This document shows, piece by piece, positions 44,408 to 55,450 of a stretch of 64,000 nt of DNA. Origin of the DNA: Escherichia phage EC.W14-3; the sequence record PP496998.1, one strand, 5' to 3'. The position numbers and the translations under genes were made by a program. Position 1 is the stretch's first letter. Every line of letters starts with the position of its first letter. The notes beneath the pieces are model-generated. The model was not told the origin of the DNA, ran no database searches, and saw only the letters and a program-made list of their open reading frames with translations.

Positions 44408-45949
44408 TTAGTAACTCTGATTCCATCTGCTTACGTTTGCCTCATACAGAGAAGCACTTCCGTAGCTAACGTCATGCTTAGAGCGACCACGATGTGTAAC
44501 AGAGCACGCTGAATAGCGCATTGCATCCATTAAGTCATCATGTTCTTTAATAATCTTACCAACCTTACGGTGATATCTAGCTTTCTCTTCGAATAGCTTA
44601 GCATTAGCGGCTGTGTTAAAGATTTTAAAGCGTCCACTCATCATTCTTTCTCGGATATCTGTGATTCCCGGTTCTACAAAGAAGTTCTTTTTACCATCCA
44701 TTCCAATTTTGTTGTAGAAGGTCTCACTCTGTACGTTAACTCCTGCATTCTTATAGAATTGAGCAACAGATGAGCCACTACCTTTCTCAATATTGTCCGC
44801 ATCGTGCGGTAGGATGACAGGAATCCACTGACCACGACCATTAATAGCTGGAGCATGATACACTGGAGTAAAGCCACCTTCTTTATATGAGTCGTAAACA
44901 TAGATAGTATCCGTGTTTGCATCGTAAGCTGTCCAAACAGCAGCAGTTGGGTGATCAATACCAATATCAATTGCACAGACACGTTTCCACGTATCAGGAA
45001 TTTCGAATGGTTCACATTTAATTGTGTCATCCGATACATCATAAATCAAACCACTTCCTAACAATGGCATACCTTTCGAACGCATCTCTAACTGCCACGC
45101 TGGAATACCTTCAGTCATATCTTTTATATCTTGGTCAGTGATATGTCCACCTAGGTCTGCATGAGCATCCCACCAAGAAGCGTTCTGGAAATATAGAGAA
45201 CCTGTGTTCTCATCCCCTTCGCCTTTCATAAATTTATCTACCAGTTCAGTTAAACCGTTCTCTGGTGTAGCTGTAATTGTAACTAGACCTTTAGTTGTGA
45301 GTGTACGTGTGACGCACTGTGCGAATATAGCCATAGACTCGTATGGATCTTCTTCGTCTAACCAAATGTAGTCAACTGTTGCACCCATCAATGTGTGTTC
45401 ACCCTGTTGGGTTGAACGGAATTCTAATGTACTTAAACCGTCAAACTCCCCTCTCTCATTTTGATGTTTGATTTGTACGATTTGAAGTTTGTTACCATCT
45501 CGTTCTATCGTGTCAATGACGATAGCATCACGAGGAATGACACCTGTCCCCAATAAGTTTGTATCCTTTCCGATAGGTGTACCAAACAATTCCTTTTGCA
45601 ATACTTTCCTTGTGGAATCCCCTGTAATACCAACTGCCCATGCTAAGATAGGTCTTTTAAATTTATATCCTGTCCACCAAGTTGGGTAGCGACCTGTGAC
45701 ATGACAAGCAAACTCGTATGCCTCGCTATAAGATTTACCAACACGGTTCGCTGCACACAAGAATCTAAAGCGATGCTTCAATCCTGCTGCATAAAATTTC
45801 TTTTGGAAGTCATACGCCTTGAAAGACAAAATCTTATTATACTTCCTCCATTGGTCACGCTCTTTCAACATATTCAATAGTGCTTTCTTTTCCTCTACAC
45901 TAAGATTGTTACCAGTTAGAGCTTCATAAATTTGTTTATCTAATGACAT
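44408..45949 (-). CDS. terminase large subunit
   Basis: Walker A-like CAANRVGKSYSEA near N-terminus, 513 aa, position before portal; RBS GGAGG. Confidence 0.8.
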   Translation of the reverse strand: MSLDKQIYEALTGNNLSVEEKKALLNMLKERDQWRKYNKILSFKAYDFQKKFYAAGLKHRFRFLCAANRVGKSYSEAYEFACHVTGRYPTWWTGYKFKRPILAWAVGITGDSTRKVLQKELFGTPIGKDTNLLGTGVIPRDAIVIDTIERDGNKLQIVQIKHQNERGEFDGLSTLEFRSTQQGEHTLMGATVDYIWLDEEDPYESMAIFAQCVTRTLTTKGLVTITATPENGLTELVDKFMKGEGDENTGSLYFQNASWWDAHADLGGHITDQDIKDMTEGIPAWQLEMRSKGMPLLGSGLIYDVSDDTIKCEPFEIPDTWKRVCAIDIGIDHPTAAVWTAYDANTDTIYVYDSYKEGGFTPVYHAPAINGRGQWIPVILPHDADNIEKGSGSSVAQFYKNAGVNVQSETFYNKIGMDGKKNFFVEPGITDIRERMMSGRFKIFNTAANAKLFEEKARYHRKVGKIIKEHDDLMDAMRYSACSVTHRGRSKHDVSYGSASLYEANVSRWNQSY

Positions 45950-46018
45950 ACTTCCTCCAGTTTAAAAATAGAAAAGGGAAAGTCCCTTCGTCAAAGAACC
46001 TCCCCTTCTTTCCTTTAC

Positions 46019-46492
46019 TTAACTCTCGTCCGCTTCCTCCCCCTTTTCAGCGTCCTCAGAGTTGTCTTCTTCTGGAGGCATAACGTCGATACCAAGTGCT
46101 CCAGTCAAGAAGTCCTTGATTTGTGCATTCAATGATTCTTCGTTGATTACATTCTCTTCCTCAATCTTAACTTCAACAGAGGCCGCCTTAGGATATACCA
46201 GATCTGCAACTTTTGATGCAGCCTTGAATCTAAGATCAGGTGGAATATTAGGATCTTCGTAAATTTGAATTAACACTTCATCAGGAGACAAATGACTTGC
46301 AGCAACACGGTCCAACATTAATTGTGTCAGTTTACCTCTACTACCTCTGGGTCGTCCGAATTTATTTCCCTTTTGAAACTTCCCATTGCTTGGGTTCATA
46401 CCACGGCCTTCAAGTTCTTCCGTTACTCCGGGTAATCTTCCTGTAATCTCAGCTACCTGTGCAGGCGTGAGTTCTCCGTTTTCTCCAAACAT
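46019..46492 (-). CDS. terminase small subunit (putative)
   Basis: 157 aa with GRPRGSRGK DNA-binding-like motif and acidic C-terminus, immediately upstream of terL. Confidence 0.5.
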   Translation of the reverse strand: MFGENGELTPAQVAEITGRLPGVTEELEGRGMNPSNGKFQKGNKFGRPRGSRGKLTQLMLDRVAASHLSPDEVLIQIYEDPNIPPDLRFKAASKVADLVYPKAASVEVKIEEENVINEESLNAQIKDFLTGALGIDVMPPEEDNSEDAEKGEEADES

Positions 46493-46548
46493 TTTATACT
46501 CCTTCTACATTATCAACAACACAAAAAGCCTCCCAACGGAGGCAAATA

Positions 46549-47181
46549 TTACTTACAATCACCAACGGACAGGTTAAACATCTTACCTAGAGCAATCGTC
46601 TCACCTTCCCACGGAAGTTCTGCACCCTTCTCTTCCTCTAAAAGAATAGAGCCGTCGACCAAAAATTTTTCGTAGTCTCGCAGTGCGTCGTCTACTAGCT
46701 CACTCTTGTGAATCCATGTAATTGTTTCTGTACCATCCTCTTCGATTCTAACATCACGATGCCATTCATCTTTGGAGGTAATATAATCATGGAGCATTTC
46801 GTATTCAGCTTCTTCAATCATCTCAATCATTGCACGAGCATAGTCAGGGAGGTGATCATGTTTAGTAGATTCGTATTCAACTACTTCCAGAGTAGAAGGC
46901 TTAGCCCGTGCAACTTCTTCAAGTACTTTTGAGCGATCTTTGTAGTAGTTCTCATATTTATCACCAATAGTACCGACTTGAAGTCCACGGTATTGTTCTA
47001 CTAAACTCATCATATCTTTCTTCTCCGTAATAGTTGGTTTAAGAATACTTCCACTATATAAATCTTGTACAGCCAATCCTGAAACATTTCCCATAGTTTC
47101 TAAATGCTGTAAGCTACAACCAGATCGACATAGCTGTGAATTGTAATCGTTAAGGTCCATCGCTTGGATTAAATTATTCAT
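46549..47181 (-). CDS. hypothetical protein
   Basis: start moved to MNNLIQ (RBS GGGAG). Confidence 0.45.
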   Translation of the reverse strand: MNNLIQAMDLNDYNSQLCRSGCSLQHLETMGNVSGLAVQDLYSGSILKPTITEKKDMMSLVEQYRGLQVGTIGDKYENYYKDRSKVLEEVARAKPSTLEVVEYESTKHDHLPDYARAMIEMIEEAEYEMLHDYITSKDEWHRDVRIEEDGTETITWIHKSELVDDALRDYEKFLVDGSILLEEEKGAELPWEGETIALGKMFNLSVGDCK

Positions 47182-47428
47182 TTGTATCTCCCTTGCTGTA
47201 ATCTTTGTATGTTTCTTTTCTGTAAGTGCGGAATGCTCTGAAGAAGAGCCAACCAAAACTACTTACATCAATTGTAATATCGAAATCTGTTTCATCATCT
47301 AAATCAACAAGACGGCCTAAGCAAGTAGCTTCCATCCCTTCTTCAGAGTCACTGTTGACCACGAAAGCGTATGTCTCCGTTCTGAACCGAGGCACCATCT
47401 CTGATAAAAAGTCTAGTACTAAATTCAT
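47174..47428 (-). CDS. small acidic protein
   Basis: 84 aa, RBS AGGAG. Confidence 0.45.
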   Translation of the reverse strand: MNLVLDFLSEMVPRFRTETYAFVVNSDSEEGMEATCLGRLVDLDDETDFDITIDVSSFGWLFFRAFRTYRKETYKDYSKGDTNE

Positions 47429-47439
47429 AATTCTTCTCC

Positions 47440-48590
47440 TCTGAATAAGAGTATAAAGGGCACATCATAAGACCTACCCGTAAAGGCCACCTCACATTAA
47501 CACCCGTGAGAATACCTGTATTCATTTTCGTAGTCTTCTTCAGAGAAGCTACCGTATTCATCTTCTGTCATACATCCCTCTGATAAAGTTAAGACATAAA
47601 GGGGACGTCATCTTTGATGACTACTTCACATTAAGGCACCCCCATAAAGGCCATGTCACGTTAAGGCCTATCCATCCATGTGCTGTGTTTAAGCTTACCA
47701 CATTTACTACATCTCCAAGTGGACTTATAAAGGGTGTGAACTCTTTCATCCCCGTAAGCTTTGCGTATCCGATAGTACTCATGATCACATTTGAATTGCT
47801 TAATGATTAACTTAATTTTCCACATAAGTTCTCTTTCAACCTTATATATAAGAGTTTAAAATACAGATTTATAAAAAATAAAGATGTATATATCTGTTTA
47901 AAATTCTGATTTGACCGAGTGGGGCTAGCCGCTCGCCGCGCGTTTCCTAAAAGGGGGGAGTCCTCATTTAAAAAAGGGTTATTGGCAATGCCTTTACACC
48001 TCCTTCCACGTTCCAACCTTTCCCCGTGCCTACTCCCCGTTATTCTTTCCCCGTGTATACCATCCTATTCATTAGCTACCCGTTTATTTAGTACCCCTTT
48101 AGAGAGTGAGAGAAAGGCTATACTCTGATAAGGCACAATCATAACAGGTCTAATAATACCGTATTGTTACCGTTCAGCTCCCCATAGTTTGAATGTAAAT
48201 AGTTTCAATAGTAATGATTATGAGTGCAATAATGATGTATGTATTAATTAAGTGGATGATTGTAATTCTTTTAATAATTGCTTTTATTCTTTTCTTTTTC
48301 AGCGTGCCTTTGTGAGCGTAGCGAACGTCTTTGATGTTTGAGTTATACAATTATTTAAGTGGTATATTATTACCGCACTATCTTGCTATGTTTCCCCGTG
48401 GTCTACCCTGCGGTTGTATGCTCCCCGTGTCCTGGTCTGTTGGTCTGCTACCCGTAGCACCAGCGTAACACCCGTAGGATTAGTGTTATAAAGTAACAAT
48501 AGCTAGTAAGCTGATTCTCTGAGTATGGAAGGTTTAGTAAATTAAATTCCTTTAGTTTTCAGTGAGTTATAAGAAAGTTAGAAAATAAAT
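47440..48590. repeat. repeat-rich AT-rich intergenic region between divergent modules
   Basis: at least 10 copies of GC-rich core CCCGT (CCCCGTG at 48022, 48049, 48394, 48423; ACCCGTAG at 48449, 48470); imperfect 20-nt direct repeat TAAAGGCCAC.TCAC.TTAA at 47483 and 47646. Confidence 0.5.
47661..47825 (-). CDS. possible small zinc-finger protein (54 aa)
   Basis: MWKIKLIIKQFKCDHE...WRCSKCGK; lies in repeat-rich intergenic region; not in track. Confidence 0.2.
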   Translation of the reverse strand: MWKIKLIIKQFKCDHEYYRIRKAYGDERVHTLYKSTWRCSKCGKLKHSTWMDRP

Positions 48591-48592
48591 GG

Positions 48593-48621
48593 TTGACAGG
48601 TTTTTCCTTTATTATATAGTT
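48593..48621 (+). promoter_or_regulatory. sigma-70-type promoter
   Basis: TTGACA, 16-nt spacer, TATAGT; about 45 nt upstream of ATG 48665. Confidence 0.55.
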
Positions 48622-48664
48622 GCGATTGTAATTTGTAGTTTTCATCAACCATAAGGAATATCAA

Positions 48665-49537
48665 ATGTCTAAAGTAGCAATTAACCACTTGAACAAAGCA
48701 AACGAAAGCCTTTCCTCTTTAGGCTTAACCGTTGGTAGTCCTGATGCGTGGATGGAAAACGAAAGCGCACGTAAAGGATTCAAAAACTCTGTAATGCTGG
48801 CTTGCTTGATCATTAATTCTACTGCGAACGCCTTACAGTGTGAAGATGAAAGCACGTTCAAAGAGAATGGCTTTACCGATATACAGGACGCTATCAACTG
48901 TTACATTCAGGCAAATTTGGATAGCTGGAATCAGAAAGATTGGCCTGAGTCATGCCGTGATGTGAAAGCTGAATTATCCCGCTTGTCTGTCATGGTTGAA
49001 GCATGGAACAAGAAAAACAAGAAACAACCAATCAAGCCTACTGTTGCAAGTAAGATTATGAAGTCTGTTAATCTGGCAAGTTATGCACTGGTTGCAGCTA
49101 TCGGTGTTAGTGCACTGGTCACGTCTCTTTCTGATAAGGCTATCGCTAGTCCTGCTCCTGCAACTGATGCGGCTAGTGTCTTCTCTAGTTCCATCAATAA
49201 GGGTTGGATGATTTGCAACGGTGCGGATAGTGACGGCAATAATATCGTGCTAAAGATGAAATTTAGCAACGTAACAAATGATGGAGTTCTCTTTCAATCT
49301 AAAACGTTAGATAATCAGCCTAACAGTGATCTAGTTCTCAAGCGTACTGATAACGATGCGGATATGGTGACATTTGGCACTGTACAACGTTATGAAGACG
49401 TTAAAGCTGTAACCAACCTAGTGAGCTATGGCCCGATCAATGAGTCGATGATCGCCACCACGGTTTACAATAACGCTGATAATGCTGTTTATACTGTTCA
49501 CGTTAATTTAGCCAACTGCATTAAGGCTAGTAAGTAA
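48665..49537 (+). CDS. hypothetical protein with central hydrophobic segment
   Basis: 290 aa; RBS AAGGAA. Confidence 0.55.
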   Translation: MSKVAINHLNKANESLSSLGLTVGSPDAWMENESARKGFKNSVMLACLIINSTANALQCEDESTFKENGFTDIQDAINCYIQANLDSWNQKDWPESCRDVKAELSRLSVMVEAWNKKNKKQPIKPTVASKIMKSVNLASYALVAAIGVSALVTSLSDKAIASPAPATDAASVFSSSINKGWMICNGADSDGNNIVLKMKFSNVTNDGVLFQSKTLDNQPNSDLVLKRTDNDADMVTFGTVQRYEDVKAVTNLVSYGPINESMIATTVYNNADNAVYTVHVNLANCIKASK

Positions 49538-49561
49538 ATAACCTATTTTGGGAGTGTAAAA

Positions 49562-49825
49562 ATGGCTATCAAAGAAATTAAGTTATCTAATGGCTTTTCT
49601 TGTTTTGTTGGTGGAAGCTCTATCCTGTTTAATACACTTGATGGTCAGATAACGTTACCTGTTATCACTTTTTGCAGGATGGAATATCAGCCTCTTAAAG
49701 ATTGGCTAGCCTTTGCTGATTTTGAAATTACCCGTGAAGACTTCAAATCAATCTATATTGACGGTGATTTATCACTGGCTAACCTGCTCAATCATGGACT
49801 AATTAAGGGTGATATTAATGGGTAA
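49562..49825 (+). CDS. hypothetical protein
   Basis: 87 aa; RBS GGGAG. Confidence 0.45.
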   Translation: MAIKEIKLSNGFSCFVGGSSILFNTLDGQITLPVITFCRMEYQPLKDWLAFADFEITREDFKSIYIDGDLSLANLLNHGLIKGDING

Positions 49826-50072
49826 TGAAACAATCGCACTGATTGACACGCACAATTACGGTGGCGTTACGCTCTCCTTTGATGAGTCAATCGACTACAC
49901 TTATTTGTCCTTTCTAACTAAGGGTGAAATAAAAACTATTAGCTTTCCTGCGGTCTATTTAGTACAGGATTATCTCACTATTGGGAAGTATTTAGCCCAA
50001 CGCGGGATTCTTCTGTCGCTGGAAGAAGTGGAACAGGTTAGCGTAGCATTTTTTGGCGAGGATAGCAACTAG
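49818..50072 (+). CDS. hypothetical protein
   Basis: ATG overlapping upstream stop (track start 49809 is GTG). Confidence 0.4.
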   Translation: MGNETIALIDTHNYGGVTLSFDESIDYTYLSFLTKGEIKTISFPAVYLVQDYLTIGKYLAQRGILLSLEEVEQVSVAFFGEDSN

Positions 50073-50176
50073 TGATTCATGATTATTTTTGGCGTTGCTT
50101 GTTCGTTGTTACAGTGGCGTTATTCGTCGCTGATATGCTTTATTCTTATATTCTCTAACTATAGGTGATTATTATC

Positions 50177-50542
50177 ATGGGTATTATCAAATTTGTAGTA
50201 AAAGTATTCGTGGGCTTCTTCCTTGTCGTTCTCCTGCTGGGTGTGCTCCTATCGGCTATGGGTAGCGTTAAGGCTGCAACATTCTCCCCTGCTACGGTGG
50301 AAGGTTTACAGTGCACCTATTTGATAGAAAATTATGATACCGGTAAAAAGTCACCTAAAGTTATTATTTTGCATGTAAATGATTTCGATCATGTGCAATC
50401 AGATAGTAAAACTATTCTACTGGTAAATGAAACTACTGGTAAACAAATCACGGTCGATCACTTGATGCGCTCATCGTTAACGCTCTTTGATGAGTCCATG
50501 AATGAAATGGCATCCGGTAATGGTCAATGTGTAAATCCATAG
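50177..50542 (+). CDS. membrane protein (N-terminal TM/signal anchor)
   Basis: MGIIKFVVKVFVGFFLVVLLLGVLL; RBS AGGTGA 8 nt before ATG. Confidence 0.5.
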   Translation: MGIIKFVVKVFVGFFLVVLLLGVLLSAMGSVKAATFSPATVEGLQCTYLIENYDTGKKSPKVIILHVNDFDHVQSDSKTILLVNETTGKQITVDHLMRSSLTLFDESMNEMASGNGQCVNP

Positions 50543-50619
50543 GCTTAATCTTTCTCCTGTATTGTGCCGTAGTCATGCCTATGGTCATAATTTATCTGAT
50601 GCTTTAAATCCTTCCTGTA

Positions 50620-50646
50620 AGCCTCCTAGTGAGGCTTTTCTCTTTT
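50620..50646 (+). terminator. rho-independent terminator
   Basis: agcctc-ctagt-gaggct hairpin followed by TTTTCTCTTTT. Confidence 0.65.
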
Positions 50647-50846
50647 ATGAGGTGATTGTATGCCTTACTCCCTTTTAGCTCGTTGTGGTGCGTTACAGGC
50701 CGCTTATTATTGCTTTACAAGCCGTTTTCTATGATGTATCACGCGCCCCCGCTCTTTTACCTCCTGATTTCTTCCGGTGTCCTACCGACAATAAAATAAA
50801 TTCCTTTATAAAACAGTGAGATGAAAAATAATTTGAAAAAAGGGTA

Positions 50847-50874
50847 TTGACATGATTTTCCTTTATAGTAATAT
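50847..50874 (+). promoter_or_regulatory. strong sigma-70 promoter P1 with A-rich UP-like element
   Basis: aaaaaagggtaTTGACA, 16-nt spacer, TAATAT. Confidence 0.65.
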
Positions 50875-51003
50875 GAATCCCGTAGTAAGCAGTAAGTAAC
50901 AACAAGTAGTAAAAACTCCTCGATAGGTGATTAGCATCACGGTAAAAGGCTTCAACGGGGAGCGGTAGGAATACCGACAGTAAGACGCACAATGAAGGTG
51001 CTA

Positions 51004-54861: not shown

Positions 54862-55251
54862 ATGTTGACATTGACTATTTATTATGAGGCAGGGAATCAG
54901 CCAACCGCATGTAAGGCTTTAGTTGCGGATACCGTGATAAATAGAATGGCCCAACGAAAACTGACCGCTGAACAGGTGATAAGACAAAAGAACCAGTTTG
55001 AGTGGATTCCGGTACTATTAAAACAGGAGAAACCTTATAAACGTTATGTAAAGCTGATTCGTGATAAAAATCCGATGACTAAGCAAGCCATTGGAGAAAG
55101 CGAGCGGCTGGCTAAACGTGCCCTTAAGAAGAATTATGTTCCGCTGTACAGTGGGACTTACTTTCAGAGTAAGAGCGAAGGGGTGCCAAAATGGTATGCC
55201 AATCCTATGTATTGTGGTGATTTAGTATTTGATAATAGCTCTAGGGAATAA
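54862..55251 (+). CDS. SleB-like cell wall hydrolase (Hydrolase_2 family), tentative
   Basis: IYYEAGNQP..CKALVADTVINR resembles SleB catalytic block YAEARGE...AVA.VV.NR. Confidence 0.45.
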   Translation: MLTLTIYYEAGNQPTACKALVADTVINRMAQRKLTAEQVIRQKNQFEWIPVLLKQEKPYKRYVKLIRDKNPMTKQAIGESERLAKRALKKNYVPLYSGTYFQSKSEGVPKWYANPMYCGDLVFDNSSRE

Positions 55252-55450
55252 TCACTAGTGCCAGATTTGACAAACTAAATTCCTTTATAAACCAACCACT
55301 TAGTAAATTTATTGAAAAAGATGGTAGTATTCTGGGACTATGGGTAATGCTCTGTATATAGACCCTTTGAAAATTTCTTAGAAAATAAGTTTACTAAATA
55401 TAACTTACTTAAATAATATTACTTTTAATCTCTGATAAAGGGTAAATAAT

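Follow-up and report, generated by a model that had tools for sequence, protein, structure and literature searches.

The stretch of DNA analysed here, referred to below as the window, comprises 64 kb of Escherichia phage EC.W14-3 (PP496998.1). Judged by its sequence, the window is that of a Kuravirus, i.e., a phiEco32-like podophage of the Gordonclarkvirinae. The 2.2 kb around the repeat-dense interval on which we focused (47440–48590) is 100% identical to Escherichia phages EC.W2-6 and EC.W8-1, and the same 2.2 kb is found at 82–96% identity in ~90 other phiEco32-like podophages, including phiEco32, SU10, YF01 and 172-1. The minus strand of the window corresponds to the conventional plus strand of the phage. 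To the left of the genome junction described below, small early genes are followed by the putative small terminase subunit (TerS), the large terminase subunit (TerL) and the portal, all on the minus strand. To the right, the plus strand carries the right-end early genes, downstream of a sigma-70 promoter (48593–48620). A direct terminal repeat (DTR) sits between the left-end small genes and terminase on one side and the right-end early genes on the other, and transcription diverges from it. The same gene layout on either side of the repeat is given for phiEco32 and SU10 in the retrieved passages of the SU10 paper.

The database records of the closest relatives differ in length. The GenBank record of EC.W2-6 (PP445229.1) has 67,000 bp and that of its twin EC.W8-1 has 76,408 bp, with other relatives at 75–79 kb. 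As the terminal repeat lies internally in both records, at 55171–55363, both are permuted, and the shorter one (EC.W2-6) is probably truncated.

Terminase and small genes left of the junction

TerL (44408–45949, minus strand) matches the Pfam families Terminase_6N and Terminase_6C as well as PHROG 2. The neighbouring gene (46019–46492, minus strand) is named putative TerS from its position beside TerL only, and the YF01 record also labels it "putative TerS"; its product has no Pfam match and no significant fold match, and falls in a PHROG without assigned function. A 235-aa protein encoded at 46549–47256 on the minus strand carries the name "ABC transporter" in several relatives. As it has no Pfam match and its sole match is a PHROG that bears this very label, the name looks like a propagated annotation.

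The left third of the interval (47440–47825) consists of small early genes with repeated upstream elements and lies outside the terminus. The first gene inside the left end (47661–47825, minus strand, PHROG 7696) encodes a 54-aa protein with a zinc-ribbon-like CxH...CxxC pattern. In each of the 11 relatives with coverage of this locus, the ORF is intact, at 60–100% identity, which identifies it as a real gene. It is unannotated in EC.W2-6. The first-pass annotation of this region saw essentially no convincing ORF in it; this is accurate for 47826–48664, which is non-coding, but not for 47661–47825, where the conserved 54-aa gene lies. A 70-aa ORF (47349–47561, minus strand) contains stops or frameshifts in several relatives and is thus not a gene. 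Within the same stretch, a mini-ORF with its own ribosome-binding site (47497–47571, minus strand) would encode a very acidic product of 24 aa (MTEDEYGSFSEEDYENEYRYSHGC). The mini-ORF is kept with synonymous changes in seven genomes (EC.W14-3 and six relatives), and it is absent from YF01, 172-1 and Bas94.

Each small left-end ORF is preceded by an element of ~50–70 nt with the pattern GGCCTTTAyGGG...ATGAyGTsCCCTTTAT...TCAGAGG. Its two copies in the interval (47453–47500 and 47596–47664, minus strand) lie ahead of an 84-aa gene (47174–47428, minus strand) and of the 24-aa mini-ORF. An imperfect 20-nt direct repeat that had been noticed earlier in this part of the interval turned out to be real and longer than first described, extending over 33 nt at 76% identity (47468–47500 and 47632–47664); it corresponds to the repeated upstream element. 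Small cassettes between copies of the element are present or absent depending on the relative, which suggests modular exchange at the upstream repeats.

The direct terminal repeat and its surroundings

We placed the DTR at 47927–48119, as both ends of this 193-bp stretch match the exact 193-bp repeat that is found at the start and at the end of the phiEco32 GenBank record. The reverse complement of the phiEco32 repeat aligns with 47927–48119 from end to end, and the first 16 and last 16 nt are identical. Position 47927 is also the end point of the phiEco32, SU10 and YF01 records, the CHD5UKE1 record stops at 48120, i.e., at the opposite boundary, and the YF01 record labels the matching stretch "direct terminal repeat". 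The DTR of EC.W14-3 thus shares homologous sequence, the length of 193 bp, both boundaries and the genomic position with that of phiEco32. Nothing essential distinguishes the two, apart from the EC.W14-3 repeat being collapsed and internal and having a variant right boundary (see below). As the 64-kb window contains a single copy of the DTR, the assembly is a permutation in which the two genome ends have been collapsed. With one collapsed repeat lying internally in the assembly, the interval spans the concatemer junction.

Terminal repeats of this kind have been described in relatives of EC.W14-3. The retrieved passages of the YF01 paper trace the 193-bp repeats of phiEco32 to restriction profiling combined with primer walking and subcloning (Savalia et al. 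2008, cited in PMC9965538 and in PMC4281155). In the same passages, the repeats of YF01 are reported as directly visible on full-length nanopore reads, repeats of 192–193 bp are given for 30 phages of the phiEco32 group, and these repeats are read as a sign of T7-like replication via concatemers. In the retrieved part of the SU10 paper, reads drop sharply at both repeat ends, which implies that the ends are blunt. We rejected a headful (pac) or cos site, as the ends of the relatives are fixed, blunt and exactly repeated in these sources, rather than permuted or cohesive. Together, these matches and reports make it very probable that 47927–48119 is the Kuravirus terminal repeat and that the interval is a junction. 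A genome terminus was among the features that the first-pass annotation had proposed for the interval, and this proposal is borne out: 47927–48119 corresponds to the 193-bp DTR known from the phiEco32 group, and its two boundaries are conserved. The DTR is already known for the genus; new here is its placement to the base in this phage.

To follow the junction through the group, we compared 13 of them, namely those of the EC.W14-3 window, phiEco32, YF01, ShigP1, EK5, phiEc_1, 1-6af, 172-1, Bas94, Bas89, EP335, Bas87 and BS3, with nucleotide identities down to 67%. The same short sequence is found at both DTR boundaries (47923–47929 and 48116–48122): GGCT|A..., which usually reads GGCT|AGC and often forms the palindrome GCT|AGC. 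The left boundary is [G/C]CT|AG in 12 of the 13 genomes, with GGGGCT|AGCC in EC.W14-3. The right boundary is GGC[T/C]|AG in 11 of the 13; it reads GGCT|AGC in phiEco32, as in most relatives, whereas EC.W14-3 and YF01 have GGCT|ATAC. This recurrence makes GGCT|AG a candidate cut-site motif of the terminase. As GCTAGC occurs seven times in the 64-kb window, the cut-site sequence alone would be unable to specify the junction.

The most conserved block in the comparison, GTTTAAAATTCTGATTTGACCGAGTGGGGCT (47896–47926), lies just outside the DTR and has a column identity of at least 0.9 across the 13 genomes. Within the DTR, a near-invariant core, GGGGGAGTCCTCATTTAAA (47954–47972), falls inside a pair of C/T runs (CCCTTTTTTA-10 nt-CCCTTTTTTA) that is described in the retrieved passages of the SU10 paper, and those of the YF01 paper mention a conserved region at ~130–170 of the DTR. 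Together, the outer block (47896–47926) and the adjoining part of the DTR (47927–47975) form a candidate cleavage and recognition site at the left boundary. A 42-nt local duplication (47854–47895) is found only in EC.W14-3 (and EC.W2-6) and in 172-1.

Beyond the right boundary of the DTR lies an AT-rich spacer (48120–48390, GC ~0.30) that contains the conserved sequences CCCCATAGTT (48180), TAATGATGTATGTATTAATT (48230), TTTTTCAGCGT (48295) and ATTATTTAAGTGGTATATTA (48350). The first of these is invariant and is located between the two repeat arrays, A and B, that are described in the following section. The interval as a whole had been described as AT-rich in the first pass. This is true of 47700–47899 and 48100–48399, where the GC content is 0.30, but not of 47900–48099, where it is 0.49, so that the composition is best called patchy. 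The sequence AATAATGATGTATGTAT (48228–48249), which lies inside a near-invariant block of the spacer, recurs as AATAAAGATGTATATAT (47877–47893), and both resemble the AATGTA core of gp36 promoters. We considered the conserved GATGTAT blocks as promoters for gp36, the phage sigma factor. As AATGTATA-like words occur at chance frequency (67 found vs. 74 expected in the window), we made no gp36 promoter call.

To the right of the spacer and of array B, a strong early sigma-70 promoter (TTGACA-16-TATAGT, 48593–48620, plus strand) matches the consensus at 11 of 12 positions and is kept in 11 of the 13 genomes. The retrieved passages of the SU10 paper place one such promoter ahead of the last gene. 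The promoter is followed by the first right-end early gene (48665–49537, plus strand), which encodes 290 aa and is a phi32_128 homologue. An RNA element was considered and rejected, as a search of 45000–51000 gave no Rfam match at E ≤ 1. Similarly, we found no sign of a hairpin or cruciform at either DTR boundary or in either array, where single-stranded DNA folds were no better than those of shuffled sequences (z 0.03 to 2.4).

Strand-polar CCCCGT arrays at the junction

On both strands of the 64-kb window taken together, [A/C]CCCGT occurs 29 times, where 20.4 ± 4.8 copies are expected. Eleven copies are found in 47476–48475, where ~0.3 per kb are expected, and all 11 are on the plus strand with none on the minus strand. 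The earlier count of at least 10 GC-rich repeats in this region therefore stands, and the copies also exceed what local base composition predicts: the non-coding core (47830–48664) contains eight on the plus strand and none on the minus strand, whereas 300 dinucleotide shuffles of it averaged 0.76 copies and did not exceed 4. Three of the 11 copies are explained otherwise. The copy at 47750 represents the AYGDE codons of the 54-aa protein, the one at 47502 is the end of the 24-aa mini-ORF, and the one at 47476 belongs to the repeated upstream element. Such arrays are absent elsewhere in the 64 kb.

The 8–9 motif copies in 47927–48480 form two arrays, both on the plus strand. Array A (48018–48100) lies inside the DTR, with CCCGT at 48022, 48035, 48049 and 48078 and a degenerate CCCCTT at 48094. 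Array B (48391–48480) lies ~275–360 bp beyond the DTR and ahead of the early sigma-70 promoter (48593–48620), with CCCGT at 48394, 48423, 48450 and 48470 and a degenerate ACCCTG at 48405. The sequence TTTCCCCGTG occurs exactly three times, at 48019, 48046 and 48391. The first part of array B (48390–48431) repeats ~40 nt of array A (48018–48058) in diverged form: their local alignment score of 24 was reached by only 3 of 1000 shuffles, and the pattern that they share is TTTCCCCGTG..CTAC.CC..G..TAT.C.TCCCCGTGT. This alignment makes array B a paralogue of array A that has since diverged. The fourth copy of array B (48470) derives from a 20-nt duplication (48456–48475) that is present only in the EC.W14-3 window.

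Comparison across related genomes, which had been suggested as a check in the first pass, revealed polar arrays with spacings of ~14 or 29 bp in all 13 junctions. In 12 of the 13, [A/C]CCC[A/G]T occurs 7–10 times on the plus strand, where 1–2 copies are expected, and the minus strand of each junction has 0–1. Bas94 has four copies only, or six by the looser CCCGT core. Neighbouring copies are separated by 12–16 nt (n = 30) or by 27–31 nt (n = 40), and other spacings are rare (n = 5 over the 13 junctions). Seven Kuravirus genomes have array-A copies at identical offsets from the DTR start (+95, +108, +122 and +151). In Bas89 and EP335, at least four array-A copies are found at partly different positions, with extra copies within insertions, and Bas87 and BS3 contain a 44-nt insertion with the variant TACCCAT, which is itself repeated. 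Copy number is retained while copies come and go via indels, and the arrays clearly evolve by local duplication, a process that could go on without selection. The columns of the CCCGT core are no better conserved than the other columns of this non-coding region, which is highly conserved as a whole (0.765 vs. 0.771), and randomly placed blocks were as good in 5633 of 10,000 trials. The best-conserved blocks lie outside the motif, at 47896–47917, 47954–47972, 48180–48189, 48230–48249, 48295–48305 and 48350–48369.

Could the arrays be without function? They might have arisen as by-products of slippage or of local duplication at a genome end prone to recombination, and have been kept only along with a junction that is conserved as a whole. 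The equal conservation of motif columns and their neighbours fits this explanation, as do the relation of array B to array A as its diverged copy, the restriction of the 20-nt and 42-nt duplications to this window or a small number of genomes, and the location of extra copies within insertions in relatives. However, 12 of the 13 genomes keep 7–10 copies with full polarity and quantised spacing, down to 67% identity. Moreover, copies are replaced rather than simply lost, a lineage-specific variant is itself repeated, and the unrelated phage T7 has converged on the same design (see below). We consider it unlikely that the arrays are such by-products.

In more distant relatives, i.e., the Grimontviridae and IMG/VR loci with 45–67% TerS identity, CCCGT arrays are absent and other polar repeats are found, partly beside terS instead of at a mapped repeat. 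The Grimontviridae in this comparison were Salmonella phages 7-11 and PKM.Hi.22.6, Cronobacter phages A24 and vB_CsaP_009, and Proteus phage Privateer, whose TerS are 45–50% identical. CACTGA is present in 7–9 copies close to terS in 7-11, A24 and PKM.Hi.22.6, with 1–2 on the other strand, while vB_CsaP_009 has 10 copies of ACTATG with none on the other strand and Privateer has five of TTCCATAG (complement CTATGGAA). In the record of A24, the two ends overlap by 127 bp. The polar repeats of the Grimontviridae may hint at lineage-specific co-evolution of protein and DNA.

The arrays as possible packaging signals

Terminal arrays of CCTAAAG in T7 were reportedly described by Dunn and Studier in 1983. 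We rebuilt the T7 junction from its record and found 13 exact copies of CCTAAAG in and around the 160-bp repeat, all on one strand (none on the other), with two before, three inside and eight after the repeat. Their spacings are 13, 13, 13, 13, 24, 25, 26 and 29, with some longer ones in addition. CTATCT is found at both boundaries of the T7 repeat, and the T7 early promoters lie just inside the arrays. The Kuravirus junction resembles that of T7 in having a short motif more than 10 times on one strand in and around the repeat, spacings that are multiples of ~13–15 bp, one short sequence at both repeat boundaries and early promoters just inside the arrays. It can be classed with the T7-type arrays, as a 6–7-bp motif occurs ~10 or more times both inside and beside the repeat, with all copies on one strand.

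Unlike in T7, the motif is CCCCGT rather than CCTAAAG, without sequence similarity between the two, and the Kuravirus copies are mostly inside the repeat and on one flank only. The Kuravirus arrays are thus an analogue of those of T7 and not a homologue. Furthermore, Kuraviruses use the host RNA polymerase with a phage sigma factor, whereas T7 uses a phage polymerase, so that pausing of T7 polymerase at the junction need not have a counterpart here. To our knowledge, the function of the CCTAAAG arrays in T7 has never been settled. The analogy thus transfers a design and not a mechanism. With its polar arrays and their quantised spacing, the paralogous relation of array B to array A and a short sequence common to both repeat boundaries, the Kuravirus junction appears, as far as the retrieved literature goes, to add a new case to the junction architecture known from T7: CCCCGT repeats are not mentioned in the retrieved passages of the SU10, SU7, YF01 and Privateer papers, and Savalia 2008 or Pavlova 2012 may have noted them.

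We propose that the interval is a concatemer junction whose strand-polar arrays would serve as recognition or assembly signals in packaging, a statement to which we give, as a whole, slightly better than even chances. Virion DNA would begin and end with the 193-bp repeat (47927–48119), with transcription directed inward from both ends. After replication, one shared copy of the repeat would link successive genomes, as it does in T7. The terminase would then find the junction, cut at both repeat boundaries and duplicate the repeat, with the conserved boundary block and the shared GGCT|AG as the cleavage sites. The CCCCGT arrays would provide multiple weak sites, ~14 or 29 bp apart, on which an oligomeric DNA-binding protein, most likely the small terminase, is loaded in one orientation. 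Arrays loaded in this manner would mark which of the GCTAGC-like sites are cut, and would set the direction of packaging. Taken by itself, the part of this proposal in which the arrays act in packaging, as putative cis elements for terminase recognition and junction processing, is made plausible by the T7 parallel, and we regard it as a serious possibility that falls somewhat short of an even chance. Speaking against it are the motif columns, which are conserved no better than their neighbours, the growth of the arrays by local duplication, which selection need not drive, and the putative TerS, for which no family assignment or significant fold match was found.

Arrays that are recognised by the small terminase are found in other phages, e.g., the R sites of lambda cosB and the pacL and pacR boxes of SPP1. 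In these systems, as at the Kuravirus junction, several short direct repeats lie by the cleavage site, and there they position an oligomeric TerS. The ends of lambda and SPP1 are cohesive or headful, in contrast to the exact blunt repeats here, and binding of TerS has been demonstrated in those systems, whereas for Kuraviruses it is proposed.

A second explanation that competes with a packaging role is that the arrays are iterons that flank an AT-rich unwinding region (48120–48390), which would place a replication origin beside the terminus. As in iteron origins, direct repeats flank an AT-rich stretch: 270 bp of ~30% GC with near-invariant blocks lie between two direct-repeat clusters. A sign change in GC skew is also located here, but the change in gene orientation accounts for it just as well. 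The repeat core of 6–10 bp is much shorter than the 17–22 bp that are typical of iterons. One weak DnaA-like box and no IHF site were found, with no clustering of DnaA, IHF, GATC or Chi sequences, so host-factor boxes such as those of iteron origins are missing. No initiator gene is adjacent, the neighbours being terminase or genes without assigned function. Finally, one array lies inside the DTR, which is a better fit to the processing of ends. An origin had also been raised in the first-pass annotation; nothing specific speaks in its favour, and we consider it quite unlikely.

Very unlikely, in our view, is a role of the arrays in DNA entry or early transcription, either at the leading end, where a virion protein or an early protein would bind them, or, in the form of C-rich RNA, as Rho-loading sites that would shield the early promoter from transcription reading through the junction: although the order of repeat, short repeats and early promoter ~475 bp inside the right end mirrors the leading (left) end of T7, and the plus strand is C-rich (GC skew −0.26 to −0.33), a promoter from which the arrays would be transcribed in the plus direction was not found, array A would be present at both ends of the virion DNA, and there is neither an Rfam match nor significant structure.

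A broader generalisation could also be entertained, which we consider doubtful. The CCCCGT arrays of Kuraviruses and the CCTAAAG arrays of T7 would, on this reading, be members of a single, unrecognised class of cis element: strand-polar loading arrays, repeating every ~13–15 bp, which would orient an oligomeric small terminase where the concatemers of phages with exact short terminal repeats are joined. In each lineage, the motif would co-evolve with TerS, as suggested by the CACTGA and CTATGGAA repeats near terS in the Grimontviridae, and the partial copy of array A at 48390–48431 would set the direction of packaging.

With the genome ends of this phage very probably at 47927 and 48119, its deposited assembly is permuted and the terminal repeat collapsed. 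Correct ends matter for the annotation, engineering or rebooting of such therapeutic coliphages. Our analysis is a modest advance rather than a surprise, useful for annotation and engineering and as an entry point to packaging signals. The polar arrays and the shared GGCT|AG boundaries are concrete and mutable candidates for such signals in this phage group. The T7 parallel suggests that this design may be general for phages with short exact terminal repeats.
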